This document shows positions 1-45,599 of a stretch of DNA of 64,000 bases, one piece after another. The DNA is from Psammoneis japonica (lineage: Eukaryota), in the NCBI GenBank assembly GCA_008632985.1, contig QPGO01000004.1:310001-374000 (forward strand), in the 5' to 3' direction. Both the position numbers and the translations under genes were made by a program. The stretch's first letter is position 1, and each line of letters begins with the position of its first letter. The notes beneath the pieces were generated by a model. That model had not been told where the DNA came from. It saw nothing but the letters and a program-made list of their open reading frames with translations, and searched no databases.

Positions 1-3000
1 GGGAGGTTGCAAATGCTGAGCAAGTGCTCAGACTTTGTTGCAAAGCTGAAATTCCCAGTGTGAGAGATTGCAAGCCTTTTTTGCAATCAAACCAGGTGAA
101 GAGCTTGTCCATGACTGTGCAACATTGTGCCTGAAAATGTGGACAGGATGGTGGCCATTTGGGTCATTAAAAAAGGAAAGACCAAACACGCACATCAGCC
201 CCACAAGAAGAACAACATGATGGCAATTCTGCCTGAGACATCATGCAAGAAGTAGAGGAGAGAAGGCATGATCCTCTGCATTGACATTGTGGAAGTGTGC
301 AGAGCCAAGTTGCTGTGCGCAATTGACAAGACAATCAAGTGTCAATCAAGTGTGAGATTGCACTCAAAGAAGCACGTTGATGTGTGCAGCATGCTGGACA
401 TGATGGTGTGCCAGCACACCACAGCTTTGTTCAAGATTGACTTTGTTGAGTGTGATTCTGAGTTCAAGAACATGCCGGCAAAAGCCACAGATGGCATGAA
501 TCTAGAACTGATGTTTGCAAACACACCAGCGACCATGTTCCCAAAGTTGAGCAAAGCATTGAGATCATCAAGGAGCAAACTTGAGCCACAGCACACCACC
601 TGCCACACAAGATGATGCCCAAGAAGTTTGTGTGAGCATGCCATGATCAAGAGCACTGTGATGGCAAACATGCACCCATGGAAGGAAAGAATCTCTGACA
701 CGTGCAGTCCACACACTGTCATGCAACAAAGAAACCTTGACCATGACAAGCACTTCAAGTTTGCCTTCAGCTCATTTGTCTTGTCTTGCATTGAAAACAA
801 CCCAACAAACACCATGGCTGCACACGGCATTAACAGCATGCACTTGCAACCACATTTTGACATTCCTGGGGGTGGTCACTGCTCTGTGAATTCACACATT
901 ATGGGGAAGCTGCTAAACCCATGCAAGTGCACTGCTGCACCCTTGACTGACAAATGCACACAAGCAGTTGACAAGATAACCTCAGCACAAGGCATCAAAG
1001 ACTTCAAATTTGTGGGCAAATGTGGGGACAATCTGCCCAATGCGGATTGGACTGCAGGAGCAGACAATGACAACAGCAAAGACAAAAGTGACAGCAAAGA
1101 CAAGAATGAGCACAAAAGCACCAGCTGTGTGACAGAATCTGAAGACAAAGATTGTGAAAACACCCCTGATTCAGATGGTGAACATGAAGAAGCAAATGAG
1201 ATGCCAGCAGGTGAAAAATCCAGTCCCAGTCAACAGCAGGAGAAGCAAGAAGACTGAAAGAGACAAAGCACCCACAGAGGAGACAAGAGGAGAAGAGAAG
1301 CTGGAGAAAGAGGCAACCAAGATGCCAGCCAGAGTGACAAGGAGTGGCACAAGATTTGGGGCATCCCACAACATGAAGTCACATGAACACAGAGAAAAGA
1401 CAGTTCAATTGCAGGAGTGGCAGATGCAGAAGCAGAGCAAGAAGAGCAGAACAAATGTGAGCCCCAATCCAGGGGACAACAACATTGAGTGTGATGCAGA
1501 AAGAGGAATGGTTTCAGCACAATTTGTGTGCAACAAGATCAATGACCAGGTCCAATCAGGAAAGAGCATTTCCTTTGCCCAACAGCATTTGCCACATGAA
1601 AGCCTCAAAGTGTTTGGCCAGAAGGAGCCCAGGCACAATGCCTCAGAGAAGGAGATGAAACAACTTTGTGACAGGGTGTGCTTTGCACCAACATCAGTCA
1701 AAGATGACATGACTTGAGCTGAGAGGACCAGTGCTGTGATTGCCTCAATGTTCCTGATGGAGAACCAAGATGGTTGCATGAAATGGCAAATGGTCTGCAA
1801 AGGAAAACTGACCAAAGAATGGATGAACAAGGATGAGTCAGCAAGTCCAACAGTGTTGCTGGAAGGAACACTGATGACAGCAGTCATTGATGCCATGTGG
1901 AAGAGTGCAATGCAATGAGCATTGATGCACTGAGCATGTTTGTGCAGACACAGATTCCAGAGCCCAAAGAAGTCAAAAACCAGATTGTGATGACTGCAGG
2001 TGTGTTGTTGGCTGCCATGCCAGCAAGCATTGATCACAACCTGCTTGTGCCACATTTGGTCATGGAAAAGGGGGAAACCGTCCTCCACATCCAAGTTGTT
2101 GGAGCCACACATGGCATGTTGATCACGGCTCTGCTGCGGCTCAAGCAATTTTGAAAGGAGGTCTTGAAGAAGATTGGACTCAAGTTCTGCCCATGCAATC
2201 CATGTGTTGCCATTGCCAATTGGTCAGTCAATGGCAAGCAACACACTTTTCATTTCCATGTGGGTGACCTTTTGTCAAGCCACAAGAACCCAAAAGCAAA
2301 TGGTGAATTTTTGAGCCAGCTGAACAAGATGAATGGAAGCCATGGCAAAGCTGGTGCAACAAGGGGGAAGAAGCATGACCACCTCAGCATGAGGTGATGG
2401 TTGACATGACCAACTGCATTCACAAGATGATTGGCCAGTTTCTGGACAAGATCAAGAGCACCTGTTTGACACCAGTGGCATCAGGTTGCCAGCCAAGAAA
2501 GCAAAGATGTTCCATGCATGGGCGGCCAAGAGGGGCCATTCCTTTCCAAGAGAGGCTTCATGGATGCACACCCAACCAGCATTGCAGGGTCATGCACACA
2601 AGTCAGAGAGCCAACCAACAAGGACTGGGGAAAACTCTGTTTGAACCAGACAAGAAATGAAGTCACATCTTTGAGTGCAAAGGACCTCTGAGTTGTCAAA
2701 TGTGGTGCATGGATGCATTGTTTGCAGTGCACCCAGATTTCAAGAGCCACACAGGAGGAATTGTGACAGTGGGAGACTGAGCAATGCAGGCCACACATCA
2801 AATCCGCAGAAGCTCAACACCTGAAACAGCACAGAGGCTGAACTTGCAGGAGGAGTTGACGATCCAATGACTGTGATGCTTGGGACAAAGTTGTTGATCA
2901 TGGAGCATCAAGGCCATCCAATTGATGAGAACATCCTGCATCAGGACAACAAGAGCACCACACTGCTGGAGACCAATGGGCACAGGAGTGCCAGAAAATG

Positions 3001-3200
3001 GTCCAGAGCACTCAACATTTGGCATTTTTTGTTGCCAATCAGGAGATCAAGGAGGGCAATCTTAGAGTGCAGCATTGTCCAACCAAATGACATGCTTGGA
3101 GACTTCATGACTGAGTCATTGCTGCACCTCAAGAAGTTTCAAAAATTCAAACAAGCTGTGTTGTGGGTTGTGGGCTGTCAACTCCAAGCACAACAGGAGA
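1..3200 (+). mobile_element. Highly degenerate Ty1/copia (CoDi-like) pol remnant: integrase, RT and RNase H; truncated by the window start
   Basis: Motif fragments across frames: FAQQHLPHESLKVFG..EMKQLCDRVCF, ASPTVLLEGTLMTAVIDA, FHVGDLLSSHKNPKANGEF (~FHVDDL), RGKKHDHL, NILHQDNKSTTLLETNG..SRALNIWHF, MLGDFMT. Many stops and frameshifts. Purine tract ACAGGAG near 3193. Confidence 0.85.
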
Positions 3201-4899
3201 GTTTCCTGTTTGTGAGATGAGATGAGAATTCTGACACAGGTGGGTGAAAGAACCCTGCAACCCAGAAGATTTGTTGAGTCATGTGGTTCAACAACCAATC
3301 ATGATTTGTTTTTCAGAGCCAACCATGATGTTGATGACCATGATTGCCAGCATTGGAAGAGAGCCACCAGAGCATGTCAATGAAACAATGGCCATGACAT
3401 TGTTGGGACAAGTTTGTGAAGTTAAACGGATTGTGATCAAAAAGAGGAAGAAATTCTAAGACCAACACCACCAGAAGGCACTGGTGGCAGAATGTGACAA
3501 GTGGATGAAGTGTGGACACTCCTCACCACCTCTGGACCTGTTCATTGATTGAGGAGCAATTGATGTGGGTCTGCTGCCAATGATCAAGTTCAACAAGGAT
3601 GGGAAGCCCACCTGGACTGTTGTTCTTTGAGGAACACTCAATCAAAACAAGAAGGAATTTGAAAAAGATGCCACAAGCTGTGGATGGCAAGGCACAACAC
3701 AATGCAGCATTGTGTGCATGTTGAAAAGCTGGGATGGGCCAGCAGAGTGTGTCAGCACACATCCACTGCAGCACTGATGATCTCCCCTTTTGATGAGGCA
3801 GGCAAGACAAGGATGGAAATCAAGGAACATGCAAGAAAAGCACACAAGACCAAAGAATGTTGGTGAGTTGTTGGAGGCCAAGCCTGTGCACATGGCAGGA
3901 AATGCTGCCACAAGGATTACAACCAAGAAGAGTTGGGCAATGAGTGCAATGAAGAAACTGTTGCAGGATTGCAAGGAAATGAATTTAGACCTGCCCCAAA
4001 CAAGTGTGACATCAATCACCTGGGTGAGCTGTCAACAGCGGGTTGTCCTGCATGTGGTGTGGACTTCTGTGGAACATGTGGACCTGTTGTAGAGTGTGCA
4101 GCACCAACCAACCCAGAGAAAATAAATGCAGCAATTTGGAACAGTGCAAGATGACAATGGTGATGTCCATGATGCTTTCAAGTTGGCAAGATTCTTCCAA
4201 CGTGAAACTGTTGAAGCAAAACCCAGTGGGCAGTGGGCCTGCTGCAATGGTTTTTTTTTTAGCTGTGCTCATGGACAATCAGTGACTGGGTCACAAACTT
4301 GATTGGGAATTTGGGTTGGCACAGCAAGGCTTTGATGGAAAACACTCATTGCACTTGTGTGTGTGAAGCATTGTGTGGATCAAGTGAGCAAGATCACAAA
4401 TGTGTTCAATGATCTGATTAATTTCCATTGTTGTGGGCCAGAATTTTCCTTTGATGCCTGTGCATGTGAGCTGGAGGATGACAGCATTGAGGCAGCCAAC
4501 TCACCTGGTGAGTTTGTGGCAAACATTCTGCCAAAAATGACAAGCCCATGCACTTTGGCCAAGTCAGACCACAATGGAATGTTGATTCGAGTGGCAGGAG
4601 TGTGTTGGAGGATCTGGAAAAAGGGAAAGCCAAGGAGCCTGGATGTGTTGAAGAGAAGATGTTGTTGCTCCTGTGATGTGGAAGATTCAGCAACTCTTGT
4701 GATTGGAATTTCATCATGGCTGATCTCTCTTGCCTTTCTGTTTGTCTCACTCTTTGGAGTGAATCATTTGGTTTGTTTGGGTTGCACAATTCCATTGCAT
4801 CAGTGCCGCTGAGTGTCTGTTTGCATCATGAGTTTGAACTTTGTGTCAACAATTTCCAGGAAAACCATGGTTACCACCACAAATGAGCAGCACAGGAAG

Positions 4900-6400
4900 C
4901 ATTGCAGGATCCCCTTTTGTTGACATTTGCTTGCCAGTTCAACAGCTTGGATTGGCTGGCCATGTCAATCTGTTGTCAGCACTTGGCTTCATTGGGGAGA
5001 ACAAAACAAAGGCACTTCCTGTTGCAGCAGCATGAGGGCCCACCACATTGGATTGCAACCCAAGGCCTTGTGCCTGAAAGCCCAAGCTGAGGTCACCAAA
5101 GCTGTCATGAGCTCCTGTCTCAAAAGCAAAAGGTGGATGGGACCATTGATGGCCAGTTGATGCAAGAGACAACCTCCAAAATCTCTTTTTCTCAGTCACC
5201 TCACCCATCAGGAGTGTCTTCCTCTTGCAGTCTCCTCCAGCAATGATGACACAGCCCTCATCCACTGCACTGGTGCTGTTGAACTTTGTGAGAGGAAGGT
5301 TGGTCAGGAGCTCATTGAACTCCATGCCAAATGCATGGAAGCAAGATGAGCACAAAGTTTTGCCCTTGTTGGTCATTGTGTTGAGAGAGATGCTGCTGCC
5401 TTGGGGTGCTCAGTGACCCAAGATGCATTTGACTTTCCTCAGCAGCACTGCTCTTCAATCCACAAAGTGGCGGCTGCTTTGATTGGGTGGTTGGAGCACT
5501 CAACAGATCCCTGGCACCACAGCATTCCGGCCCCACCCTGGACAGTGCTGCAGCATCATGGATCAAGATCCTGGATGGCTTCAGTGACTTCCTTTGCTGT
5601 GAACTCCCTCCCATTGTCTGTGTGGCTCACAAGGGGGCAGCCCATCAAAGAGGAGCAAATGTGACAGAACTCTCAGGTGACCCACTTTGCTTTCTTGGAG
5701 GGAATGGCAGCTGTCTGGATCAACCTGGTGCAGCAGCCAATCTTTCAAAACCATTGGCCACTTCATGGTTGGAGAGCTGGGATCCCCTGGGTGGAACTGC
5801 CAAGGGCCCTTTTGACAATCCACCAGGTCAATCTGGGAATGATCCCAGAAACTGTGACTCATGATGGGGACTTGAGCCCCCTCAACTCTTGCCACAGAAG
5901 GCTGCATCTTGCTGCAAGTGGGGCAAAGGTCAGTGAAGCAAGAAACCAGCATCTCTGTGACACATTGTAAAACTTCTTCTTGGTGTCATTGAACATGTGG
6001 CCCAACTTGAGATGACGACCACCCATGTGTCCATGGTGCTGTGCAACAATGTCAAAAACCTGCTCAGTGTGGACAACAACAAGCTTGGATGTCACAGATC
6101 CATCCTTGCCTTTCTTCTTGATCTAGAAAATCATGTCACAGCCAAGGTTGTTGGTCTCCACCAGGTGACTCTGCCACCAGGAGCAAGCTTGGCTGCCAAA
6201 AAGTTTGCAAAACTCTCTTGCACTGAGACCATCAGCCCAGTGCCTGGGTTCCTGAGTTTGGCTGCCCAAGTCTTTGTTTCCCACTCAGATCAAAGCATGA
6301 GCTTGGACATTGTCTCAAGCACAGCACTGTTGTGGTCATTGCCGACAATGCCAAATGCAGCCTTGTCGAAGGCTTCTTAGTGTTTTGTCTCCACAAAGAT
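4900..6400 (-). mobile_element. Degenerate DDE integrase with H2C2 zinc finger (Ginger/KRBA2-SCAND3-like)
   Basis: Minus strand reads HGHMGGRHLK..FTDLCPTC (zinc finger), PIMSHSFWDHSQIDLVD (first D), HTDNGREFTAKEV (second D, ~5610-5575), QGSVECSN (E), then CFHAFGM. Broken by stops and frameshifts. Confidence 0.7.
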
Positions 6401-8799
6401 GTTCCTGACCTTGTCAGGAGAAGTCATGCCAACAGTGGCATCAGAGTGGGAGAGAGGAACGGCAACTGACATGCAGGGTGTGGACAGCACAAAGAGACTC
6501 ATCTTGGCCAAAAAATGCCACAAAATCACATCAAGAGAGGTGCTGCAAAAAAGCAACAGAGATGGACAGCCAAGGTGCCATGTCTTCTTGAGCAAGGCAT
6601 CAATTTTTTTGAGAATCTGGTCACTGACAGAAAAAGGCATTGTGGTGAACCAGTCAGGCAGATTCTTGAAAATCCGTGGTTCACAAGAATGGGGATTTTG
6701 GTGCAAGGTCCAATTCCAAACAGTCCATTTTTACAAGATTCCATGCCTCAACAAGAGTTGCAGATTCACAAGAACTGTTGCAACAGATCCACGCTTTGCT
6801 GTGGATGAGACCCATCACCATGGTCAAACCATTGGATCAATTGGCACCATTGACCATGGACATTCCAAGCAGTTCTGACTTGGAGAGCAACACAAAGGAT
6901 GCCGTGCAGGTTGTTTCTGTTTGCAAACCTTCTGACACATGTGATCTGTCCTTTTCTTGGTCCAGAAAAAGAAGAAATTGTGAGCTGCAGCAGGCTCCAA
7001 AACCCAGCACAGGACAATGTGGAAGCACCAACAAGAACCAAGAATCATCTGCCTTTTTAGGATCTCCTGGTGGCACATCAGCAACTTCAATGATCAAAAT
7101 TGATTGTGTGTTGAACATCATGAAGAGGCTGTGTTGCGTGTGAATGTTCTTGGTGTTTCTCCAGCAACAAAAACAATTGTGGAAAAAGAAGCTAACTGGT
7201 GTTGCTTGTGTCATCACTTTTGTCTTCATTTTGTGTGGATCAAGATGACATCTTGTCACTGTCAGCATCAAGTGGTGCAGATTGCACTGGTGTGGCTGCC
7301 AATTGGAAGTCTCTTGTGAAGCAATGTCAAGTGCTGCCTTGGATGGAACTGAGGTTGGTGCACAGAAGATTTGTCTGGTCAAATCTGGCACAACTGCTCA
7401 AGAGGACTTTGCTTTGCACACCGGAAATCCATCATGGGCATTGAAGCAAAGACATTTGCAGCCAAGCACCTTTGCACCTTTGCTCCCAATCTGAAGCCAC
7501 TTGCTGCAGCCATCATCTGAAGGAAGACCATGACTGAAAAGTGTCAACCTGTTGGCACTGCTGGAAGCCAATCTGCAGCAGCAAAAGCAGCAGGTGTTGG
7601 CAGCAACCAAAGCAATGAAGAAGAAGATGCAGAGAACAAAACAAACAATCTCAACTGCTGCAGATCGGTGGGTGTGCTCTCTCATGAGCATGTGAAACCC
7701 AAGCCAGCTGGTGTCTTGTGGAAAATTGACAAAGCTTGAACTCAGTGACAAGGTGAAGCCAGTCAACAAGTTTTCAGAAACCCCAGCTGAAGTCTGCAAC
7801 ACCAAGGAAGCTTGCAACAAGATGAAACAGGCTCCTCATGGGCATGATGAACAGCATGAGTGGGAGAAAGCAGCCTCAGAAAATCCAAGCGCATTCAGTC
7901 CAATCACTCCCAAGCAAGCAAAAAGCAGCTGCACATTTCTCATTTCTTCTCCATCACTGCAGTCATCTCACAGACAATTTTTCTCAGTCAGGTGAGAATG
8001 ATGATGGCCCAAAGCCATTCAGAGAATTCTGTTGGAACAGGCTCTGCTTGGCCTGCCTCCATGCATTTTTGCAAGAGGCCAGAGAGGGCCTCGTTCAAGT
8101 TGCACATCATCAACTGTCCAGCATTTTGTCAATCTGGGGAGAAGCATGTGAATGAGAAAAGGAAACCCAAGGGCAGAGGAGGCAGCAGCAGTTGACACAA
8201 TGACAGTCTTGGGCAGATTGCACATGCTCAGCATCAGAAACGTCACACCACATTGCACACTCTGATGACAGAATCATTTGGAGAGACAACCTGGGCTCTT
8301 GAGACCATCAATGCCTCAAAAAAATCAAAGAGGAGGAAGTCAAAGGAGTTGATGGGGAAGAAACATGCAAAGAAACTGATCAAGAAAGCAAAGCAGAATC
8401 AAAAAGTTCAGAACTGTGATGTTGAGAAGAAGGAGGGGGTTCTAGCTAGTCTGGACAATGAGCTTGCAAAGGAGTGCTGCAAACAGGAGGAAAGGAGCAT
8501 TCATTTAAATGATCAGCTTGACAAGGTCAAAAACAAGATGATGGCACACATGCTCACTGCTCCAACTGACTGGGTTGCAGTCCCATCAACTCACTTGACC
8601 TGCTCTTGGCTGCAATTGTGCAAGTGGCTTGCAACACAGTGCCTGCATTTCAAATTGGACCAAAATGCTGTCCATGCCATGCAATGTGGCAACCTGTGCT
8701 GCAGTTGTCATCCTGCAGCATCCTCAATTTGTGCCAGTGCTGTTGAGTTTTAGATTGGGCCATTTAAAAAAATCTGTCCACTGCTTTCTGCATTGCTGG

Positions 8800-9530
8800 G
8801 TGGGAGGTGGCACCCTTGGTGTGCCAGAGCTCCTCCCAGATCCTCTCATTGGAGGGTGGAATTCCCACCTTGCTCCTCTGGGGGCCCACAATCCAGCCCA
8901 TCAATTGGGCGGAGGCAGCTGAGACCACTGAGAGCACCCTCCAGATGGTTGACATCATTGTCACCACCACTGGTGGCTGCTGATCCACCCTTTTTTCTTC
9001 CTGTTTGTCAATGACAGAATTGTGAACAAGACAAAAAGAAGCTTGATGATCTCACTGTCCTTCTCTGGGTTGTGCATGAGGTGATGTCAAAAAATCCTCT
9101 GCATGGTTGCCAACCTCTCAAAAGCCATTTCAGTTTGGATTCTCAGCTGACAAAGAAAGAAATGGAAAGTTCATTGTGACTTGGTCAAGTTCCTGCTGCT
9201 GCAATGGATGATGTGCAGGTTTGAAAGCTCACCTGCATTGTCAGCAACAACAAAGTGCTTGGAGTGGTCAGCATGTGGTGCCATCTAAAGAAGCCATTTC
9301 TTGAAGTTTCTGCATCAATTGATTGCCACAATGTCCTTCATCTTGCCAGGAGCAGCAATGTCCATGAACCCAAAATGAAGTTGTGAGTCACATGCAGCTT
9401 GCACATTGAGACCCAGTTGCTTGCAGTGTGCTGAATGACAACCACTGGGGTTGTTGACACCTTCTTGTGGTTGTGCACAGCACAACCAACCATCAAGTGC
9501 AAGTGTGTTGGCAGTGGGTGGGAACAACCT
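8800..9530 (-). mobile_element. Degenerate PIF/Harbinger transposase (DDE_Tnp_4-like)
   Basis: LALDGWLC...HSAHCKQLGLNVQAACDSQLHF...AAPGKMKD, then KHFVVADNA and SQLRIQTEMAFERL. All three catalytic motifs are recognisable. Confidence 0.8.
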
Positions 9531-12061
9531 CTTTGCCCAAATGGACCATGGCAGTCATCAACACTCATGACAAAAAAAATTGTCATCATCACAACTCATG
9601 CTGCTTGTGAGACTCAATGTGCACTCACAACATGCAAGGCTGAGCTTCCAATTTCCACCACACACACACCATGTGAGCACAAAACAGAAGTTTCATGGGA
9701 CCCATGAAACTCAGTGCAAAACAGCCATGATCTCCTCCCCAAACAATGCTGGCATTTGCATCACAACCTTTGCTGCCAACCACCTTGGAAGCCCCAGACA
9801 CTTTGCTCACCACCTTTTCCTTGGAGCCAATCAAGAACAACCATTCCCTGCCCCTCCTCTCCCCTCAGAACTTGCAGCATCTTTCTTCCAACATCCACCC
9901 ACATGCACTGCCCATGCCAATGCCCAACTCTCTCCATCTGGCCTCCTCCACACTGTCATGTCCTGAAAAAGTGTTGCCTCTGCCAGATTTGGCCTCACCC
10001 ACCATGCCACCACCACTCCCACCCTGTGGGGCCTTCAAAGCTTTGGCCTCAACATCATCAAATCTCATGCCAATCAACTCCTTTGCTGCTCCACCAAACT
10101 CCACACACACCTTGCTGTTCCCACTCACACAATGCTCCTGCTCCCCACCCACATGATGTGCCGTTTCACCCCACAATGCCATCTGCACATCACACCACAC
10201 CATCGCCAGGTGATGTGGCATGTGAACTCCTCACATGCATGCAACAGGCAGTTTCCCCCTGACCAATGAAGTTCACCACCAAGGGACCACTAAGACAGCC
10301 TGCTGCTGTTTGCCAAATTGCATCCAAAGCCTCAGGATCATCACAAAAAGTTGTGCTTTTGGTGTCACAACAGCAGCAATGACATTCCAAAACAACAAAC
10401 AAGTCATCGCATCATTTTTGAAAAAAAAGAAAGTTTTTGGTTGTGATGTGGCATGGCAAAGTGCAGAAAAAGGTGACAACTTTGTTGCTCTCATTGATGA
10501 CAAATGCAAGGCTCAGGCCCTTCTCAAGCACCTCTCAACACCCTCTGTTGACTGAGTCAACTCTCGTTTTGATCCAAGAAAATTTGTTTCTACTTCTGCT
10601 TTGTCAGTGGAGAGGGTCATTCCTGCACAGACAGTGAATCACTCTCAAGTTGTGAGCCTTGCTTTTGCTTGGCACAAGGAGGGGCCATGCCACATCATGA
10701 AACAACAAAACACCTTCAGCACATTGTTGTCAACACCGGGAGAGAGCGTTTGTAACGTGAACTTTGCTGCTCTGTCAAAGCGATTGACGCATCCATTGTT
10801 GTTCATCTTGTTGCTTTTGTCGGCATTGTCAGCCAATGTTTCACATGTGGTGTGGCATGCACTCTGCTTGCACAGAGAACCTGTGTGAGGTGCACCATCA
10901 AAGATCCAACATCAACTGCCCCGTGCACAGTTTGATTTCTTTGAGTGCAGCGAAACGTCAAGATGCCCCCCCCACGAACGGCACCCGTTTGATGATGGCA
11001 TTGCTCTGGTGGTGAGCTGAACTGTCATCAATGCAGGCCGCTCTGTCCCTGGCATTGGCTCAAGATGGCAATTTGCCGACTGCTGTTACAACAGACACCC
11101 CACACGGACGACCCCCACCTGTCTCCACTCCACCCGCCAAGATTGTCACTGTGTGCGGTGCGACTCACCCCGTTGTTGAGTTGCATCCTGCAGCAACAGC
11201 TCCATCCCACACTCCCACCAACACTCACCTGAAACCCACCCATGTTCCAGCCTCCAATGCCTCTGCTGCTCCCAAGAAGGCCGCTGCCACCTTTTTGCCG
11301 TGGACGTGCGTGTGGGCCCAGAATTTCTCAAGCCGAGTCAATGCCCCTGCCCATGCTGCTGCACTGTCAGTGACCACTTCACCAGTTGCCTCTTGTTCCT
11401 TTTCAGCGACAAACAAGACTGACCCATTGGCTGTTTTTAAGATTGCTTTGGGCAAGCTTGAAAAGCCAGTTGAGCACAAGCGTGCTGGCGTTGCTCTGTT
11501 GACCGAGCAGCCATTGCACGCTCATGAACAAGGCGATTGCTGCAGTCAACACACACACACACTCCCTTGATGCTCATCAATGCATCACATGTTGCAAGCT
11601 TCCATCTGTGTGCCACTTGCAGATGGCTTCTCTGCACACCGCGAATGAGGCAATTGGATCTGTTGTCTTTTCTGGGAAGTCAATTGTCTTGGACATTCCA
11701 GATTCTGCTGGCCTCAACCCTGCCAATGTTGCAAGCCTCTCCCATTGTGGGGGGGCTGCACTGCTTGGAGTTATTGTCAGTTGTTACCTTGGCCACTCCC
11801 TGGCAAAATGCTGCCACCAAATTGGCACTGCTCCGGTCGCCCACATGATTTCCTCTTGGATTGAACAAGGTCTGGACGGCCTCCCGATCACTCTCATACT
11901 TTACCCGTGACTTACAGACCTCCCAGTTGGGAGTGCGCTGCACCGCGCTTTTTTTGCTCCGATAGTTTTGAGCCTCACACCGCATCCTGCATCCTGTGTC
12001 TTTGCCATTTCCTTACCCTGGGAGTGTTGGCCTTGTGTGTCTGTTTGTCTTGAATCTTACA

Positions 12062-13494: not shown

Positions 13495-13781
13495 AAAGTG
13501 CTGGTATCACGAATGCCTTTACGAATGCAGGTCATCAACAGTGAGAGCAGTACCGTACGGTAGGAATAGCAGTTGCGAGCGGTGAATTGTGAATTTCGTC
13601 ATTTCCAATTTGGAATTTTCATTTTTCCGTTTTCCGCAGATTTTCGCTTCATCCTTCATCCTTGCGGGAACAAAAAAATGGCGACGGTCCTCGGTCCTCG
13701 GTGTCTCGGTGTTTTCGTCGTCCACCTCTGTCAAGAGTTGAAATGAAGACAGAAAGAAAGGACTGGTGAAAGAGACAATGC

Positions 13782-14063
13782 ATGAGAATGGATCGGGAAT
13801 CGTTTCTAAATGGATTGGCGCGTGTTCTTCAAAGCGAAAACTGTTGCTTGTCACCTGATGAAGCACATTGCGTTGCTGAGGCGACAGTGGAGGACACTGG
13901 CGAAAGCGCTTCTGAACTTTCCTCCATTCCGTCGAATCCAGAGTTTCGAAAGGCTCTTGCTGTGCGAGTTGGGCGACTGCCATTCTTTGCCGTGGGAGGA
14001 AGGGTTAAAGCTTGTTGAGACTGCTCTCAAAGGCAGTGAATCTAACTTTTGCGAAAGCAACGG
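13782..14063 (+). pseudogene. 5' part of an HNH-type (YisB-like) gene interrupted by the copia insertion
   Basis: The frame ending ..SESNFCESNG at the left TSD continues in frame as NGEHIDD.. after the right TSD. Probable frameshift near 13955. Confidence 0.65.
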
Positions 14064-14410
14064 TGTGGGAAAGCAGCCAGAACTCTAAGACTCGTCTGCA
14101 CTTTCAGCGATCAAAAGCTGCAATTGCGATGCAACAATCAATCAGTAACTTCACTGCACCAAAAGTTGAGAGGTGACAATCAGTACGTTAGAAAGATTAT
14201 GAGCAGTTTTTATGAGCAGATGCAGCTGCCATCTAAAGGAAACGCGAAGTTAAACAAGCGTGAAGCTAGGAACAAACATCGCATTCGTGACTCGGCTTCC
14301 GCGGGATTCGAGACTGAGCATCGCACACGGGGTTCGAATCTTGGATCTCTGATTTGAATCGTGGAGGTCCGATGTTGTTGTAAAAACATGCAAATATGAA
14401 TATTGTCACA
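14064..14410 (-). repeat. 3' LTR
   Basis: Direct repeat of 20279-20625 with 11 substitutions and no indels by manual alignment; TGTG...CACA termini. Confidence 0.97.
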
Positions 14411-14453
14411 CTCCCTTCAACAATGTCGGGTGGAATGATGACTCGAAAACGTC

Positions 14454-17400
14454 TTACCACTTAAGGAGCGATTTCCTGTGTTTAACGAAGAGATTCTGTG
14501 GTAGAGGTTTGGTGAAAATGTCTGCAATCTGATCCGCCGTATCAATTGGTAGGATTGATATGAGACCTTTGCGAACATGGTCTTTAAAGTGGTGGAGAGT
14601 GAGGTTGAAGTGTTTTGTCCGAGGACGCATCTTAGGCAATCTCGCGATCTCCAATGCTCCAGAATTGTCTTCAAAAGCCTTACAATGTACGACTGGTGTC
14701 TTGGAAGGGACATTATGACCGTGATCCATAAATTCTTGAATGAGGTTCATAATTGGGATGGCGCTTCGAAGACTTTCCGAAAGAGCGATAAATTCAGCTT
14801 CAGTAGTGCTGAGCGCGATCTGAGTCTGTAGCTTGGACGTCCAGACAATCGGACATCCTGCATAGGTGATGACAAACCCAGTTCGAGATTTGGAAGTGCC
14901 GACGTCATCGGGTGCAGTCAGCTTATTCCAATTGCCCACAAAGTCCGCGTCGGCGTGAACTTCAAGGGACTTGTCCGTTGAGGGCTGTAGTATAATACCT
15001 TCAGTTCTGGTTGACCTTAGGTACTTACAGAGCCATAGTACGGCTTCACCGTGAGAAACCTTGGGATCGGAAGAAAAGCGTGCGACTTGGTGCACCGCGT
15101 AAGCGACATCCGGTCGAGTGCTCTTCTCCAGAAAATTGAGCTTGCCGATGATGGATCGGTAATGAAAGCTCCCTTGGAAAGCAGGCTCACTCATATGCCT
15201 GTGGAGGATCTTGGAGGAAGGAGCAGGAGTAGACTTATCTGGTAGTCTCTTTGGAACATTGGCCATCTCCAGCATCTGATTGACAAGGTGAGGTTGGGTG
15301 AGTTTCATTCTGCCGTCTGGCAGTGTCTCGACATTGACACCGAGATAGTCGTCCAGAGTGCCTTGATCATCAATATCAAAATTCTCATCTCTGATATCCT
15401 GTATCGCCTTGTCAATAGCAGACTTGTCAGGGGATGCAAAGATGCCGTCATCGACACAATGAATGAAAATGACATTGCCACGAAAATGCAGGCACTCATC
15501 AACTGCCGATTGTACGAAACCAATCCTTAACAATCCATCACGTAAGTGTTCTTGCCATACTCTCCCTGCTTGCTTTTGTCCATATAAGTTCTTGAGCAAC
15601 TTCAGAACATGAGTCTTGCCATTGCCACATTTTGTTTCAATTCCTGCAGGTGACTCCATGTGCATGTCACACTCGATGTCGGCATGCGGATGCGCCAGAA
15701 CGAAGTCGACTTGGCGTGTATGCCACTTCTTAAGAATGGCAATGATCAGTAGGAGCTGGATAGTGAACCAGAAGACCACGGCAGAGTAGGTCTGGAAGCA
15801 GTTGACAGCGTGCTCTTGCTTTCCGCCGTGCACATTAAGTCGGGACTTCCATTTGTAGACGGCTTGGGTCTTAACATCTCTTTTGCGCTTCATGGACCAT
15901 ACCGAAGGGAGAACATCAACATCGTCAGGTACATCCTCTCTTGGAATGAGTGTCCAATGTTTCCTTTCAATGTGATCATTGACCTCCTTAACACAGGCCT
16001 TGACAAATTCGTCTCTGTCAGGTTCACGCATGGCCTGATCAAAGCACATGGTGTCGGGGTCCGAGCTCGCCAGAAAAGAGACAGGTGAGTCCATATCGTC
16101 CTGCAGTTTGTAATCATCCTCGTGCATCGCATCATAATGTGCCTCTGCCTCTGCATTGTAGGAGACAATGCCTTGAGCCCGTTGCAGTTGGCTCTCGCGC
16201 ATCCTTTCGGTCGGGCGTCGTTGTCGGCCGGACCTGCTGGTGCTGGGTTGACCCATAGTGCGCTGTGGCTCAGATGGTGCGTCAGAATCATCTGGAGGCG
16301 TGTGTGGCATTTCATCATCCGGTTGGGCCTTATCAAATGAGTCATCAGTGGTGGACGTATCAGCAGGATGCAGCAGCTGAGACGGGACATCCGAATTCGG
16401 CTCAGGTGGTTCCGTTGTGGTGGGGACTGATCCCTCAACCGGTGCGTCACTTGATTTCCCAAAGATGTTGAAAGCACTCCTTGTCTTGAGTTGTCTGAAA
16501 CCTGCAATGCCTTGCCATTGTGAGAATGTAGGAGGATTCCCAGCAAAAGGGCGAACGGTCTCAAAGAAGTCGTCAAATTGTACGTGAAATTGCGGCGACA
16601 CGAGTCCGGTCTGCAAATTCAAAACCAAGGTAACTGAACCTGCGTGTCTTGTTGATGGTCCCAAATTGATTCCTAACCTTGCCCTTGGGTCCCACTTAGG
16701 CAGCCTACCTCCTCCCTGCAACCGGTTGTGCAAGGCGTAGACGGGACAGCCGAAGGTATGGTGTTGTTTGAGACCAGGCTGGACCTTGACGGACGAGAAA
16801 CGTTCCAGCGGAGAAGAGCCGTCCTCGTGATTCGGCAAGTGATTCTTGATCTCGTTTGAGTTCCTGAGAGCGCTTGGCCATGAGTTCAACTCAACAGCCG
16901 TTGGCCATCTCACTTTAGCATGCAGGAGTTGCTTCCGAGATTGCTCTTGGAGGTCCCTTGTTCTTTTCTCCGCGATGCCGTTTTGGAAGTGGGCGTTGAC
17001 CCCACAATGGGACATTGTTTGCTGTCGCTTCTTGACGTCTTGTATGAAAGCATTGTCAGCAAATCTTCCATTGTCGGCGTGGCAGTGTTGAATGCGGACG
17101 TGCATCCGGCGTGCGAATGCCTCGAAAGCGTGCTTGGCTTCGAGCGTCTCGGCTGAGGTGAGTCCTTTCTGCAAATGTGTGCATCCCAATCCGCTGAAAT
17201 GATCAACAAAAATTGTCGCTGCTCGATGCCTTTGTTTCGTAGGTCTCCCTTTGAGCTGTGGGATCAATCCAGGAGCAGGACTCTCAAGCTGGTCGACGGA
17301 TGCGGCTTCTCCAGGCGAAGTTGCCAAGTGGATTCGTCGGCTCCGCTTGGACTTGGAGCGCCATGGTCGTTTCGTCATGGCACCGTGTGGGCAGCCGGCA

Positions 17401-20204
17401 CATTTTGGGTTGTGTGCCTTTGTAAGGCGTTTCGGTAGAATGCGCAGGGCGGCCAACAGCTTTGTCATTTTGAATGACATGTGGCCCAGGCGGCAATGCC
17501 AACGCAACAGTTCACCCTGGTCATCTGTGGCAGCAAGGGCGTCATCATTTGGCATGATGTTGATGGGTTCCGGCAAGTCCTGCTGTGCCTCCGGTGTCGT
17601 GAAATCCCTTGGGTTTTCCTCGTCTGAGTCTGAACGACTTGCTCCATCTGTTGGCTCAAATGAGACAGGAGCATCCTCATCAGCAGTGTTGCGTGCGTCT
17701 TGCGTCTCGGAAGGACGTGTCTCGGATGGACTTCTGAAGACGTCTGTGTCAATTGCAGCCTCGTCATCATTCGCAATGCTCTCGTCGTCTGGTGGTGTGA
17801 TGTGAGCTTGATGGGCCACGTGCTCGACAGTTTCGACATCGGCTTGTCCTTCGACAGTGGCTGCAAAGGTCCGGCATTTGTTGGAACCGGGTGCGGAGCG
17901 CATCTTGGCGACATCAGAGTTGGCGGACCATGGAGTCAGGTGATGGCACTTGCGCTGGTCCCACATCAGCAACAGTCCGTCGTCCCTGGTCCAAGACACG
18001 GTTCCGTGAGGCTCTGGCGTGTGGTCATCAGCTTGTTGGCTCCATTGCTGCGGGCAGAGAAGACAATGAGGCAAGTCCGGCACTTTCAACGCATCTCAAA
18101 TTTTGATGCTGTGCACTCGTCCCATGTCGTCCTCAATTGCCCACTGCACTGTTCCTTCTCCCTTGGCATGCAAGCAGCCCTTGACACCGAGCACCACTTT
18201 GTTGGATTTGCGAAGAGGACCAATGAAGTGTGCCTCGTCGTTGGACATGGTGCAGGAAGAATGCGAGTCGACGCCGATTGCAAATGAGCCCGAATCGCAA
18301 GTGGGCTCCGTTCGCTCGGGACGGTGTGGTGTGGTTGAGCTGCACGCTCCAACCGTCTTGCATCGCGCAATGACATGGCGAGCCTTTTTGGTGGCCACTC
18401 TGGAGCGGTGACCTGGCCTCGTCGACGCATGATGCCGTGCGCAGTGCCTCGTCGTTGGCCGTCGCTGGTGAGTCTTAACTCGTCTTGTGCCCAGTTCAGC
18501 CAGGACATGTGAGATGACCCACTCACCCAGTGTCATTGCGGCGTGTGACAGGCGCTTGCACTTTTCTGAAGGAAGAGATGGCATCACGAACAGCAGCATG
18601 ATCCAGATCGATGCTGCACATTTCATGACGCCAGCGACCGCCATCAGGAGCACTGACACAGTGACGGCTGTCTGCAAGGACAGCAGCAGTGTCAGAGTGA
18701 ACCTGCAGAGCAGCCACTCTTGATCCACTTCGTTTGGGATGGCAGAGATGGCACTTGCGAAGGAGACTTTCTTGTCCGACGTGTCTGTGGATGGAGCAGA
18801 CTGTTGCTTGCGGAGTCTGCAGCCTTGGTTGCCCGGATCATCAGGCAAGTGCATGACCCAAGCAGTGTGACATGGGCACCAGTGACAGTCGCGATTGTTG
18901 ACGCGCTTGTGACAGCGCTGATGACCGTTCACTGTCTTCTCAGGAGCGTCCTCCTTGGGCGGGACTTTCTTCCAGGCTTCGTCCGCTTTCTGTCTCTGAC
19001 GTGGAGTGGTCTTGGTCTTCCTTGACCGTGTGCTTCTTTCCTTGGTTGAGCCAGCCTTGGCCTTCAAAGCTTTAGACAGCTGAAGGTTCTGATCCTTGAT
19101 GGAGTCTGCCTTGGCTGCAAGCGCGACGATTTGCTCTTCAGCCGGTGACAGTGCTCCCCACTTCTTCTCGCGCTTGAGGTTGGTGCATTTGTTCAGTGCC
19201 AACGTCATGATTTGCGTCGGCGTGAATTCCTCACTGTCGTCGCACCTGTCCTTGTGTGACATGATGCACTTGACGAATGCTTCGTCAGCAGCTGCGGCGC
19301 ATCCTTTGAATGGGTTCATGATGAGGTCGTTGCACTGCTCTCCTCTAGCTTGGAGTCCGTCAACGTTGAGCTTGGCGCACTTGTTGAACTCTTCGATGTC
19401 CGAGTCAACAGCCACCGTGCACGCATCCAGGCTTGACAAGTTCTCGCGGAAGCAGTTGGTGGCAGAGCGTGTGTCAACGATGGCCTTTTGCGCAAGCAGC
19501 TTGAAGAATGGTGTGCCGATTTGATTTCCATTGATCGTGTGGGAATCCATCTCAGCCAACATCTTGTCTCTTGCTTCCTCCGCAAGGGATTGAGAGATCG
19601 CCTCGGCCATCTGCACATTGTTCTGTGCTTGTCGCGCAGGTGGATTCGCGAAGGTGTTCGCGTGGGTTCCAACATCCTGCAGAGTGAGCAGTCCGTACTC
19701 AGAGATGAGATCTCGTGGAGTTCCATTCGCGTCGGGAATGGCAAGCATGTCTCCTGCCCCTGTTTTCCATCCTGCCTCGGCAGCTCGTTGACTGAGTGTC
19801 TCACAAAACCGTTTGAGACCTTCTGAGTCGCCGTTGAACTCGTGTGGCAGCGGTGCAGCAGCGGCGTTCCAAAGCTTGAGGCCTTGCGATGTGCCGCAGT
19901 CGATGAAGTTGTTGGGACGGTGTTGACCTGGAGTCAACGAGAAGATCGGCAGTGGTGGCACAGGTGCCAATGGTGGTCCACCTGGCAGGACTCCACCTCC
20001 GCCTCCTCCTCCACCTCCTCCGCCACCTCCTCCTGGAGGTGCACCGGGAGGAACGACTGGGGGAGGTACAGGAGCAACTGGAGCGGCTGCAGGAGCAGGT
20101 GCTGTTGCCGGAGCAGCAGCAGTGGCAGGAGCTGCAGTGGGTGCAGCAGCGGGAGCTGCAACAGAGGCAGCTGGAGCAGCCGCGGTTCGTGTCTGCGTGA
20201 CCAT
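14454..20204 (-). pseudogene. gag-pol polyprotein with one in-frame TGA at 18096-18098 and many TA-loss missense changes
   Basis: Protease GVDSHSS; GAG-pre-integrase WHCRLGH..CAGC; integrase VDQ/ADNG/NGIAE; RT CVDD (normally YVDD); RNase H ADADF, STTEAE, EDNSGA, ADIFTKPL. The two track ORFs share one frame (IKI*DALKVP). Confidence 0.9.
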
Positions 20205-20265
20205 GGCAACAGCAGAGTAAAGTAGAATCAAGAGCTTAAGATCGATTGACTTAACTTGTAGATTT

Positions 20266-20278
20266 CGCAGAGGAAGCG
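20266..20278 (-). promoter_or_regulatory. Putative non-canonical primer-binding site complementary to the tRNA-iMet D-arm
   Basis: Directly internal to the 5' LTR. The + strand CGCAGAGGAAGCG(TG) resembles the initiator tRNA segment CGCAGNGGAAGCGTG as recalled. No TGG start. Confidence 0.55.
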
Positions 20279-20625
20279 TGTGGGAAAGCAGCCAGAATTC
20301 TAAGATTCGTCTGCACTTTCAGTGGTTGAAAGCTGCAACTGCGATGCAACAATCAATCAGTAACTTCATTGTACCAAAAGTTGAGAGGTGATAATCAGTA
20401 CGTTAGAAAGATTATGAGCAGTTTTTATGAGCAGATGCAGCTGCCATCTAAAGGAAACGCGAAGTTAAACAAGCGCGAAGCTAGGAACAAACATCGCATT
20501 CGTGACTCGGCTTCCGCGGGATTCGAGACTGAGCATCGCACACGGGGTTCGAATCTTGGATCTCTGATTTGAATCGTGGAGGTCCGATGTTGTTGTAAAA
20601 ACATGCAAATATGAATATTGTCACA
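20279..20625 (-). repeat. 5' LTR
   Basis: Direct repeat of 14064-14410. Confidence 0.97.
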
Positions 20626-21108: not shown

Positions 21109-21175
21109 TAAAGCAGATTTGCATTAGTTATAGTCTATCATTTAGCCCCCCTGGTGTTTGTGTGCCATACCTTTC

Positions 21176-40959: not shown

Positions 40960-41239
40960 GTATTCAGCCCGGCTCTACAGTCAACACGTAGCTTAATTTT
41001 CTAGTTGTAGCCAAGAATGATTTCAACTACTGAAGAAATACCACTGAGATGTTGGTGTCAACATTAGTGCATGCGGCACTCATGACTTTTACGAGTTGAA
41101 GTTGACATCGACACCATTCGATGCCGTTGTCCTTCACTTCTCTTCCTTTCCCCAACATTCGATTCGTAGATCCCCAATCTACGTGGCTTGCCTGTCATCT
41201 TGAAACCACAAGGCTCAGTTGCCAGACTTAGTACCCGCA

Positions 41240-43620
41240 CCTGGGAAACATGAATCATTGAACACATCTTGGGCTTGCTGCTCTTCCAAGTTGTGTTCAG
41301 CATCCACATCACATGGGTCTGCCCTCTGGCTCTTTCAGACTTGTTCCAAAATGGGTGGAACATCAGAACATCATCTGCTGTGAGTGCATTGTCATCTAGA
41401 TTGAGCATCTTCAGCTTTGGGAAAGAAACTTTCAACAAGGCATTGTCGCCAATCTGCCCATGCTCATTGATTGACAGATTCTGAGCAAACTCTGCTGGTC
41501 TCACCTTGTCCCAACATGAACAGAGCCTGAAACAAGGTAAAGAACAATCAAGCTTCAGACCAAATCCAAATGTTGCACAGAGAACAACACAAGAAGAACC
41601 TCTTGACATGACCAAACAATCCCAGATGGTCAGACTGCCAGAATTCAATGAACCACCAAACCACAACATTTGGTCTCTGTCCAAGAACACATGTTCACAA
41701 CTTGAAGTTGGATGTGTCTGCCAATCTCAAGTCTTTAGAATGGGCTGGCCTCACAAATCTCATTTGTGAACTCCACTGGGGGGTTCCAATTTGGATCAGT
41801 GCAGAACAAGCACTGGCATGTGCTGCACTCATTGTTGGCATCATGTCCAGGTTCTCTCACACATCCCTCAGGCTGTCGTGACAGATGCTGCAGCAGTGTG
41901 AACCACCCATTTCAAAACAACACAAACACACTTTTGGCTTGACTGCAGGATTGACAACAGCACATCATGCACAGCAGCAGCAAAAAAGTGAGCTGACAGC
42001 ACAAAGGCTCAGGCATTGCTGCCAGCACCCCATGCTGTCAGGTGTGAGCACAAGCTGCCTGGCCAAAGCCAGCTCAGTTGCAGTCACCCTTGCTCTCACA
42101 TTCAGGGTCAGAGTCAAGCGAGTTTGTTGCCATTCAAACTCAAAATTTTCAGTGACAGCAGCATGCATCTAAGAAAAATCAAACTCAACACAGGAGATGG
42201 GCCACATTGTTCACTCCAATCAATGTTGCTCAGGCCAAGCTCCAAGAGACATGTGCATTTGCTGGCCTGTGTCAGTGCACAACTGCTCAGCTCCAGATGT
42301 TTTCAGCCCCGTGCTTTGCACATTCGGATTTTCACCCAGATTGATGTCCGTGTCAGCTGGGCCAGGCTCCCAGAGATGTGCATGCATGCATCAGCATGTG
42401 GGTGTGTCAGTGCAAGAATGCAAAGCTGCTCAGCTCCAGACATTCCAAGCCCCCGGTGCTTTGCACATTTGGGTGTCAGCTCTGATTTTCTTGCCAAGCT
42501 CCCAGAGATTTGTGCTGGTCTGTGTCAGCACAGAGCACAGTTGCTTGATTCCAGAGACATTTTCTCAGCCTCCACCACCACTTTGCACATTTGGGCATGT
42601 GTGCCACATGAGCACATCTTTGTGTGGCTCTGCATCTTGTTCTGCAACAAACAGAAAAATGGCTGCCACAGCAAAGCACCATTGCTCCTCCTTGGATCAC
42701 TCTTTCTCAAACTGGTTTTCTGAAAAAAGGCAGCCTGTGGTGTGTTTTTTCTCAACAACAAATGCTTGACAACCCAAAAGTCACACACTTCTCAGCCACT
42801 TGCTGCTGGCAATGACAGTCTGCCACAGATGCTTGGCAGTGTCATCATCTTACAATGCTCTCAAAACAAGGGGGGCAATTGTGCAAATGACCACACATGT
42901 TTGTTCCAGACTCATCAATTTCTGTCAACAACTCTGCCATTTGGCTTGGGCAGTCATTGCCAAATCACACATTTCTTGGATGCAAGTCTCTCAGAATCTC
43001 ATGGTTGTGGTCCTCGTCACTGAGAGTTGCAACACACACCGCAGACCTTTCCCTTGCCATTCCTCTTGATTTGATTGCCACTCAGATCTGACACAGCTGC
43101 CTGACACCTCTGAAAGATTTTGTGTGGCAGTGTGCCTCCCAACCCAACAATGTGCTCTTGTCATGACAACTGTTTCCCAGAGAGACAATGACACACTTGG
43201 ATCAGTGGTGATGCATCTGAGATGAGGGCTTCAGATGATGTGAAGCAATTGTGACAATCCAGCTCTTGAATGGGAGTGACACCACTCAGGACCACCTTTT
43301 CAATGATGGCATTGGTGAGCACTTCCTTCATCTTCTCTTTCCACTTGAAGACAGTTTGTCCTGTTTCAGAGGAGCTGCACCAGCATCTCTTTTCAGCAGG
43401 CCCTTTGTAAAACTGCCAAGGTCAATTGAGAGGTTGTCATGGTCATGGCAGAGATGCTCCAAGACAAACTCTCATGCCCTGCAGCACACCAGCAAACAGC
43501 ATGGCACACCTCTGTGGTTGCTCACTCAGTGCGCTGCTGAAGCCACAAAATTGACCACGAAATGCTGACAGGGCAGTTGGAAGTCACGCCTCACTTACTT
43601 GGGAACTTTTTTGAATGAAA
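41240..43620. other. Hypermutated (TpA/CpG-depleted) block of unresolved, probably TE-derived origin
   Basis: Abrupt loss of TA and CG relative to the flanking genes; no confident protein motif. Confidence 0.8.
42234..42600. repeat. Degenerate tandem repeat, 3 x ~130 bp
   Basis: Units start GCCARGCTCC at 42234, 42361 and 42493 and share TGTGTCAG, TCCAGA and CTTTGCACATT. Confidence 0.75.
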
Positions 43621-45573: not shown

Positions 45574-45599
45574 ACAACAAAGAATGCCACAGCCAGCCC

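Follow-up and report, generated by a model that had tools for sequence, protein, structure and literature searches.

Hypermutation restricted to the dinucleotide TpA was measured de novo in the rhizarian Bigelowiella natans (Mettrop et al., bioRxiv 10.64898/2026.01.13.699255). According to the main text of that preprint, 231 of the 302 nuclear point mutations detected in mutation-accumulation lines were located in an integrated giant virus and virophage, and 230 of these 231 were A->G or T->C changes, all 230 at TpA. The rate was about 6e-7 per site per generation, with a TpA rho of 0.45 in the viral insert, clusters poor in TpA and rich in CpA and TpG were reported genome-wide and were enriched for reverse transcriptase (RT) and DDE domains, and an ADAT2-like deaminase was proposed (bioRxiv 10.64898/2026.01.13.699255). 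Here, a comparable loss of TpA is described for a 64-kb stretch of the diatom Psammoneis japonica (contig QPGO01000004.1, positions 310,001 to 374,000; hereafter the window), which contains a full-length Ty1/copia long terminal repeat (LTR) retrotransposon whose gag, protease and integrase part has lost nearly all of its TpA (TA). The pattern is probably due to a local, DNA-level transition hypermutation of TpA in diatom transposons that prefers T-A-pyrimidine (T-A-Y) and may be of the B. natans type and act in defence. Its signature, direction, strand symmetry, restriction to transposon tracts and T-A-Y context are shown by the present data. The first-pass annotation of the locus had known of no description of such a system, a statement superseded by the B. 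natans measurements.

As far as the main text of the B. natans report describes them, both cases consist of A->G and T->C changes at TpA that affect the two DNA strands alike. Each is limited to stretches of selfish or foreign DNA, in sharp contrast to the rest of the genome, and produces clusters poor in TpA and rich in CpA and TpG. By this analogy, the process in the window may be the same as the one measured there. The hosts differ (rhizarian versus stramenopile), as do the targets, which were viral inserts in B. natans and are an LTR retrotransposon, a Harbinger remnant and repeats without an assigned family in the window. In B. natans the rate was measured while targets were far from exhausted, whereas the window holds only a saturated end state (observed/expected ratio, o/e, of 0.05). 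The T-A-Y flank, a coexisting CpG decay and a pattern in which the U3 parts of the LTRs are spared and the sequence downstream is hit are particular to the window when it is set against that main text, in which diatoms, trinucleotide context and a promoter link are absent; the supplement may give flanks. No report of TpA hypermutation in diatoms was found in the literature, including term look-ups in diatom transposon papers. New in the window are the diatom case, the T-A-Y context, the priority over CpG decay, the LTR-anchored geometry and the heterozygous insertion.

Fungal repeat-induced point mutation (RIP) turns CpA into TpA, so that the DNA becomes AT-rich and TpA-rich, and is a premeiotic, repeat-dependent process that employs the RID/DIM-2 enzymes. 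It is known as a transition hypermutation of transposons in ascomycetes (Neurospora and others; PMC7296669). Like RIP, the process seen here is a saturating and inactivating dinucleotide transition hypermutation of transposons that spares single-copy genes. It runs in the opposite direction, as had been claimed from first sight of the sequence: instead of C->T changes at CpA with a gain of TpA, TpA was lost and CpA and TpG were gained, and GC went up in the TA-only tract. Methylation has been reported for diatom transposons (PMC9998398), and the loss of CpG with a gain of CA and TG that is expected from deamination of 5-methylcytosine (5mC) was found in four old blocks (CpG o/e 0.09). This decay cannot remove TpA, however, and explains only part of the pattern, since three tracts lost TA yet keep CpG (0.81 in the copia tract).

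Loss and direction of change in the copia element

The element (Table 1) has the gene order gag, protease, integrase, RT and RNase H of Ty1/copia elements, Pfam matches to RVT_2 (E 2.4e-30), gag_pre-integrs and SH3_retrovirus, and a purine tract ahead of its 3' LTR, and its pol is 50-63% identical to 120 listed relatives. The depletion that had been reported for 14454-20204 proved real, but the element is larger (14063-20625) and the loss is not uniform along it. Between about 20217 and 16800 it is complete, the next stretch, as far as 15400, has lost part of its TA, and below that point TA content is near normal. In the saturated tract (16800-20217), 10 TA remained over 3405 bp, with o/e values of 0.06 for TA, 0.81 for CG, 1.60 for CA and 1.38 for TG; the counts given earlier for 18901-19500 were exact (2 TA, o/e 0.07; 39 CG, o/e 0.86). 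TAs were retained in the LTRs (o/e 0.49), the 60-nt leader and the 3' kilobase (o/e 0.55), and CpG o/e was equal in the mutated and unmutated parts (0.81 versus 0.85). Since the first ~350 nt of the saturated tract encode an Ala/Pro/Gly-rich stretch that is TA-poor regardless, the 5' edge of the tract is fixed only to 19850-20217.

The direction of change was read at tyrosine columns, defined as those with Tyr in at least half of the best 60 of the 120 listed relatives (47-63% identity; n = 35). None of the 11 columns in the saturated tract kept Tyr (His 4, Cys 4, Lys 1, Phe 1, Ser 1), and the codons at the converted columns were TGC, CAT and CAC. The 15 columns of the partial zone held Tyr 6, His 4, Cys 3 and Phe 2, the nine at the 3' end Tyr 5, His 1, Phe 2 and Leu 1; over the 60 homologues, Cys and His together made up 103 of 2056 residues at Tyr columns. 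Tyr->Cys and Tyr->His changes were equally frequent in the saturated tract (4 and 4) and nearly so in the partial zone (3 and 4), from which it follows that A->G acted on both DNA strands, as had been proposed. CA and TG were both raised (1.4-1.9) in depleted DNA.

Individual motifs had previously been compared with an assumed consensus, which was replaced by one derived from 19 real homologues (20-sequence alignment) and from the 60 homologues. Against it, the changes WHYRLGH->WHC, HYHADNG->HCH, KRIRD->KRTRD, LAYP->LAHP, CVSVDQ->AASVDQ, MYMELP->MHMESP and VYVDD->HCVDD were all recovered, as was the Tyr change in SYVHLQ->GCTHLQ. For CxYGAMTK->CPHG, the Tyr change stood, but the Leu of the proposed 'CLYG' falls on a variable column. 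The gag motif NLFKGY was outside the comparison, the homologues not aligning there. The protein is wrecked, for example with HCVDD in place of VYVDD, although gag-pol forms a frame of 1954 codons with a single stop; this frame stays open because TA->TG/CA cannot make a stop codon. In TA-free tracts, an open frame is not evidence of function. Such tracts lack TAA and TAG, and 29 open reading frames (ORFs) of at least 80 aa, spread over all six frames, overlap 13500-21500.

Contigs of two public runs, X1 and X2, were compared with the window. As many as 20 X1 contigs fall on a single place of the copia element, the family being multi-copy. X2 family contigs differed from the window at 152 positions, of which 124 had C or G in the window and T or A in the contig, 20 were the reverse and 8 were transversions (window>contig: C>T 69, G>A 55, A>G 12, T>C 8). 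An X2 contig running past 15545 continued with 26 nt that were placed at 15654-15679 and contained five differences, four of them contig TA against TG, TG, CA and TG in the window and one TT against CT.

Among the 60 homologous proteins, three (P0134, P0126 and P0157) had 37-63% Cys plus His at Tyr columns, each in its own pattern, which indicates that the process hit other copia copies independently. These three are copia polyproteins on public contigs of 47 kb, 66 kb and 4-6 kb. In 77 environmental loci related to the copia element, a TA o/e of 0.1 or less was not reached in any 1-kb interval (0/77; minima 0.19-0.87), and whole-locus values were 0.34-0.98. The homologues and these loci thus bear out a real mutational TpA->TpG/CpA process in transposon DNA, as opposed to ancestral composition or selection.

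Seven depleted tracts and their target context

The o/e values of TA and CG were calculated in 1-kb steps, and tract borders were taken from a 400-bp segmentation of the 64-kb window. The window is a mosaic in which genic blocks (TA o/e 0.4-0.8, CG about 1 in 1-kb steps) alternate with nearly TA-less blocks, TA-free DNA making up about half of it. Segmentation placed three tracts in a TA-only class of depletion and four blocks in a class short of both dinucleotides; no stretch of at least 600 bp was depleted of CG alone. Pooled over 24.6 kb, the doubly depleted blocks had o/e values of 0.05 (TA), 0.09 (CG), 1.82 (CA) and 1.90 (TG), ordinary values for the remaining twelve dinucleotides and a GC content of 0.48. 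AA o/e was 1.04-1.20 in saturated tracts versus 1.08-1.19 elsewhere, while TA was down about tenfold. The presence of TA-only tracts, the lack of CG-only ones and the copia CpG values of 0.81 and 0.85 indicate that TA loss saturates well before CpG decay. GC was 0.55-0.58 in the TA-only tract and about 0.48 in the doubly depleted blocks; the two decays shift GC in opposite directions, so that the old blocks sit at genome GC.

Host genes in between hold normal TA (o/e 0.60 over 16.5 kb of host-gene sequence), and the genic blocks between the seven depleted tracts had values of 0.5-0.8. Targeting is confined to transposon tracts and leaves host genes at a distance of only a few hundred bases unaffected. 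A transposon identity was found for two of the seven tracts, namely the copia tract and the block with the PIF/Harbinger-type remnant. The latter was matched by DDE_Tnp_4 in a frame of 1-11800 that was read through its stops (as X), and the same frame gave a sub-threshold match to an integrase core (rve). The earlier claim that DNA transposons are depleted as well therefore held for a Harbinger-type remnant in a TA-free block, but the MULE-like and Ginger-like elements it also named had no Pfam match. The depletion of a cut-and-paste element argues against editing of a retro-transcript.

Among 109 ORFs of at least 100 aa in the depleted blocks, none matched Pfam above the cut-offs (the single match listed at E <=0.01, to Stc1, reached 17.2 bits against a cut-off of 24.8), and nine further ORFs with matches at E up to 5 gave noise only. 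A six-frame read-through Pfam search found no match in 41000-43800 or 54700-58499; the blocks 45400-54699 and 58500-63100 were scanned as ORFs only. For the tract 54700-58500, no family or homologue emerged from Pfam, the ESM Atlas (no usable match for 56657-57418) or a homologue search with 55457-57418 read through (none at E <=0.001). Tblastn searches were made with 8 of the 120 copia homologues, and the two inspected (P0121 and P0154) matched only copia at 14-18 kb. A copia-RT-like stretch was noticed near 2040-2400 in a by-eye reading.

Six X1 contigs covering 8211 nt of 1500-13556 showed 15 letters other than those of the window, those across 1500-10631 agreed with it, and independent contigs matched the depleted blocks at 99.8%; X1 contig depth was ~55-70 over single-copy parts. 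TA and CpG decay also dominate the variation between the window and X1 within the old blocks. In 1910-11410, 17 single-letter differences between the window and single-copy X1 contigs were listed (up to 11282), and ten of them were CA or TG against TA (3) or CG (7).

The flanks of the TAs that survived point to the target. In the doubly depleted blocks (n = 76), survivors comprised 45 YTAR, 18 RTAR, 12 YTAY and 1 RTAY, against 132 YTAR, 178 RTAR, 191 YTAY and 180 RTAY among genic TAs (n = 681; Fisher p 1.7e-8 for RTAY and 1.1e-12 for YTAR). Back-mutation does not explain this bias, because the flanks of TG and CA were near uniform. The order is the one predicted by two independent, strand-wise hits on T-A-Y, for which RTAY offers two sites and YTAR none; the target is T-A-pyrimidine. 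TadA and ADAT2 act on U33-A34-C35 (in tRNA-Arg, A34 standing behind the invariant U33), and ADARs prefer U-A-G. The T-A-Y context thus resembles the U-A-C substrate of TadA/ADAT2 and is unlike the U-A-G of ADAR. Both enzyme groups convert A to inosine, which is read as G, and ADARs share a liking for a 5' U; their substrates, however, are RNA, and the 3' G preferred by ADARs is the resistant context in the window.

Insertion, long terminal repeats and antisense introns

X1 and X2 contigs join 14058 directly to 20626 (6567 bases skipped, 5 shared letters), so that an insertion-free allele is present in the same sample. The 5-letter overlap at this joint equals the target duplication. In the X2 empty-site contig, 13682-14058 is joined to 20626-21400; it lies downstream of a heat shock factor (HSF) gene (21176-22426), taken on the HSF strand. 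The copia element may be inserted in, or just past, the transcript tail of this gene, the unstranded contig stopping short of it.

The two LTRs, identical when the element inserted, now differ at 11 positions, all 11 of which are transitions (4 at TA, 2 at CpG, 4 AA versus AG and 1 other); at one of the TA mismatches, the ancestral TA changed differently in the two LTRs, to CA and to TG. Ten of the 11 cluster in the final 115 nt, which follow a TATA-like CATAAAAAC, and one (a CpG change) lies within the first 233 nt. This suggests that the LTRs diverged in place, by mutation after insertion. CATAAAAAC may be a TATA box by our by-eye reading, with a guessed start site. The saturated tract begins at most 430 nt past this motif, and saturation decays after 3.4 kb. 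On the other side, the host flank downstream of the 3' LTR had a TA o/e of 0.13 in 13682-14058, compared with 0.57-0.75 in the opposite flank. The X2 contig of the empty allele differed from the window at 12 positions in 13682-14058 and at none in the 775 nt of 20626-21400; at the two flank differences that were listed (13730 and 13745) the window has TG and the contig TA, and X1 holds both letters. Hence, the U3 parts of the LTRs were spared, and the sequence downstream of each LTR was hit.

It is conceivable, and proposed here with reserve, that the process at copia sets in ~150-250 nt past the LTR promoter and from there follows the direction of transcription. In AID-driven somatic hypermutation, the target is C in WRCY and the tract spans ~2 kb. 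The present case shares deaminase-type transitions on both strands with it and, if the TATA-like motif is the promoter, also an onset shortly downstream, a kilobase-scale decay and an untouched upstream region; it differs in its target, A in TAY, and in a tract of 3.4-4.8 kb. Several points weigh against a coupling to the promoter. The motif was picked by eye, and old saturated blocks have no X2 cover. In B. natans, moreover, the hypermutated NCLDV insert is described in the main text as transcriptionally silent (bioRxiv 10.64898/2026.01.13.699255), and silent inserts and silent saturated blocks misfit simple transcription coupling.

Fourteen introns antisense to gag-pol (Table 1) were recognised from X2 family contigs, 13 by joints seen directly and the fourteenth by a placed loose contig end; a second loose X2 end, before 17044, had no match position within the window. 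In the X2 family, these introns start with GTGAGT, GTAAGT or GTAACT and end with TAG or CAG. In the TA-free tract of the window copy, six of eight donors read GCAAG(T/C), which is GTAAG with TA->CA, and some acceptors read TGG. X2 depth was 266-522 over 15444-20091 compared with 0-7 over 14116-15443, and most X2 copia RNA seems to be antisense. The spliced antisense RNA of the window copy contains no long frame (19-36 stops per frame). Across the 77 related loci (341.7 kb), GTRAGT was 4.5 times commoner on the antisense than on the coding strand (281 versus 62; in loci L003 and L006, 15 versus 1). No conservation of the antisense introns across the lineage is claimed, since the GTRAGT positions miss the introns of the family and lie partly on conserved codon pairs (maybe Thr-Tyr).

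Table 1. Features of the 64-kb window, with positions counted from its first nucleotide
Feature	Position	Strand	Basis or remarks
Full-length Ty1/copia LTR retrotransposon	14063..20625	-	Self-BLAST LTR pair, Pfam, target-site duplication
5' LTR, 348 bp, TG...CA ends	20278..20625	-	TA kept, o/e ~0.5
3' LTR, 348 bp, 96.8% identical to 5' LTR	14063..14410	-	Self-BLAST and alignment
5-bp target-site duplication CCGTT (element orientation)	20626-20630 and 14058-14062	-	Read from sequence
gag-pol, single reading frame	14454..20207	-	One in-frame TGA at 18096-18098
TA-only depleted copia tract	16800..20217	.	gag, protease, integrase; TA o/e 0.06, CG 0.81
Partly mutated zone	15400..16799	.	15 Tyr-consensus columns: 6 Tyr, 7 Cys/His
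Host flank downstream of 3' LTR (element direction)	13568..14057	.	3 TA
Fourteen short introns (70-113 nt), antisense to gag-pol	15542..19850	+	Spliced out in X2 family contigs
Doubly depleted block, old transposon graveyard	1..10700	.	TA and CG lost, CA/TG ~1.8-1.9
PIF/Harbinger-type transposase remnant (DDE_Tnp_4)	9023..9433 (approx.)	-	E 1.3e-7, 31.8 bits versus cut-off 24.8
TA-only depleted tract	10400..11900	.	7 TA, 39 CG (segmentation)
Doubly depleted block	41200..43600	.	9 TA, 13 CG
Doubly depleted block	45600..52800	.	TA and CG lost (segmentation)
TA-only/intermediate tract	54700..58500	.	TA o/e ~0.1, CG 0.5-0.6
Doubly depleted block	58200..62900	.	TA and CG lost (segmentation)

Proposed mechanism, rival explanations and neighbouring features

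In the mechanism proposed, the A of 5'-T-A-3' would be converted to G on either strand, yielding TpG or CpA, and conversion would run to saturation across tracts of several kilobases. It would outpace the ordinary CpG decay of methylated transposons and be separable from it, and this decay would then finish the older blocks. Catalytic residues and splice sites would be destroyed; no stop codons can be created in this way, so that dead elements would retain long open frames. The chemistry could be supplied by a TadA/ADAT2-like DNA deaminase that converts adenine to hypoxanthine, a candidate to which we give slightly less than even credence within this mechanism. We also infer a role in genome defence. 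A bolder version, which we rate as speculative and rather unlikely, assumes an old DNA adenine deaminase with T-A-Y specificity common to the stramenopile-alveolate-rhizarian (SAR) lineage and shared by diatoms and chlorarachniophytes. The enzyme would be loaded at the promoters of selfish elements, travel with transcription and erase all targets within a few kilobases before CpG decay sets in, and the antisense introns would be part of an arms race, for example by withholding copia antisense RNA from the guide pathway of the enzyme. Such a system would mirror RIP but raise GC, and scans for AT isochores would therefore be blind to it.

Certain observations count against TpA hypermutation as proposed here, or limit it. 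The basis is one 64-kb window and the contigs, homologues and related loci compared with it. None of the X1 contigs listed spans the TA-free copia tract, the read support of which is indirect. The polarity of individual sites at the nucleotide level comes from 26 nt and from codons, 40 of ~1786 contig differences having been listed. The specificity is not absolute, since 4 of the 11 LTR mismatches are AA versus AG and one of the five differences in the 26 nt is not at TpA. X2 may be RNA, judged from its GT..AG skips, although the run is listed as 'DNA?'. Finally, a recombinant mosaic, in which a mutated 5' half was combined with an unmutated 3' half and LTRs, is a live alternative for the copia element and is taken up below.

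The rival given the most weight is a mutable modified thymine at TpA, such as a 5-hydroxymethyluracil (hmU) or base-J-like product of TET/JBP enzymes, which would mispair with G or be repaired wrongly, with T->C as the primary event. It would leave the identical signature on the two strands, so that the composition, Tyr-codon and context data fit it equally, and a mark placed symmetrically on the palindromic TpA would have its counterpart in 5mC at CpG, a dinucleotide likewise missing from the old blocks. In dinoflagellates, hydroxymethyluracil shows enrichment at TpA. However, hmU opposite A is not known to be strongly mutagenic, and the T-A-Y preference is most simply a flank of the A; a modified thymine appears improbable.

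Repeated recruitment of Pol-eta-like error-prone repair synthesis to transposon chromatin, which would draw on the preference of Pol eta for WA->WG, could account for the changes at ApA, that is, the four AA/AG mismatches of the LTRs and the TT/CT difference in the 26 nt. It does not fit an AA o/e that remains unchanged while TA falls about tenfold, and a near-total loss of TA over 3.4 kb at a CpG o/e of 0.81 shows no tie to T:G mismatches derived from 5mC. We see little prospect for this explanation.

An equally small chance is given to a copia element that arose by template switching in reverse transcription, with gag to integrase taken from an older, hypermutated copy and RT, RNase H and the LTRs from an intact one. 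Hypermutation would still be real, but the edges of the tract would be uninformative on targeting. Co-packaged retroelement RNAs do recombine, and normal TA in the LTRs and the 3' kilobase next to a saturated 5' half is what recombination would produce. On the other hand, CpG was equal in the two halves and gives no sign of a greater age of the 5' half; TA content shifts gradually across 1.4 kb, with no breakpoint; and both the cluster of LTR mismatches in the last 115 nt and the TA-poor flank past the 3' LTR are left unexplained.

That no mutator was at work, and that the sequence is TA-poor by descent or selection or reflects assembly or basecalling errors at modified bases, is very improbable. 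Most genomes are short of TpA, the o/e being 0.60 in the genic parts of the window, and long-read basecallers can err at modified motifs. None of the 77 relatives comes near this depletion, however, and catalytic residues were destroyed; the family contigs have T or A where the window has C or G, and the depleted blocks recur in independent k-mer contigs of X1, with 15 differing letters across 8211 nt. Moreover, P0134, P0126 and P0157, which stem from other public assemblies, carry the same Tyr->Cys/His signature.

ADARs are, to our knowledge, metazoan enzymes. ADAR-like A-to-I editing of double-stranded copia RNA followed by reverse transcription would be favoured by the abundant transcripts that the family makes in antisense to gag-pol, which cover 15.4-20.1 kb and so match the span of the tract, and by the 5' U preference of ADARs (also given in bioRxiv 10.64898/2026.01.13.699255), but is scarcely credible, given that only sense A->G changes (Tyr->Cys) in retro-copies would be heritable, whereas Cys and His were equal (4 each), a DNA-transposon remnant and non-coding graveyard DNA were depleted too, LTRs and host flank changed after insertion, and TAG, the triplet preferred by ADARs, was among the survivors.

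If the process is the same as in B. natans, targeted TpA hypermutation would be a defence strategy of at least two SAR lineages and not the curiosity of one alga, and one of these lineages, the diatoms, is among the most important primary producers of the ocean. The three-base target T-A-Y narrows the search for the enzyme, and the heterozygous insertion allows 'before' and 'after' haplotypes to be compared directly. Mutated elements have long open frames in six frames and normal GC, so that gene finders will call genes in them and scans for RIP or isochores will miss them. Dating of hypermutated elements by LTR divergence will be wrong, and profile-based censuses of diatom transposons will under-count them, as illustrated by the 0 of 109 depleted-block ORFs that matched Pfam.

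The window was assigned to a raphid pennate diatom. Among its other features, a gene for gamma-glutamyltranspeptidase (30504-31772) finds the closest of its named relatives, 55-60% identical, in Nitzschia, Seminavis, Cylindrotheca and Fistulifera, and further long ORFs contain HSF, Myb, UBA, STAND-ATPase, 2OG-oxygenase and TRAPP domains (Pfam). An ORF of ~400 aa with normal TA and CG is present in three copies (85-93% identical; 43943-45411, 53048-54404 and 63081-64000), each of which sits between hypermutated blocks and has no Pfam family. Of the 83 changes polarised in this family, 29 are transversions, which is an ordinary substitution spectrum; the number of copies is too small to polarise TA changes. 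The region 34190-37483 (minus strand) contains two long ORFs (580 and 500 aa) with no Pfam family and a 150-bp tandem duplication at 35327-35629; its composition (TA 0.27-0.42, CG 1.05-1.25) is unlike that of both the genic and the hypermutated class.

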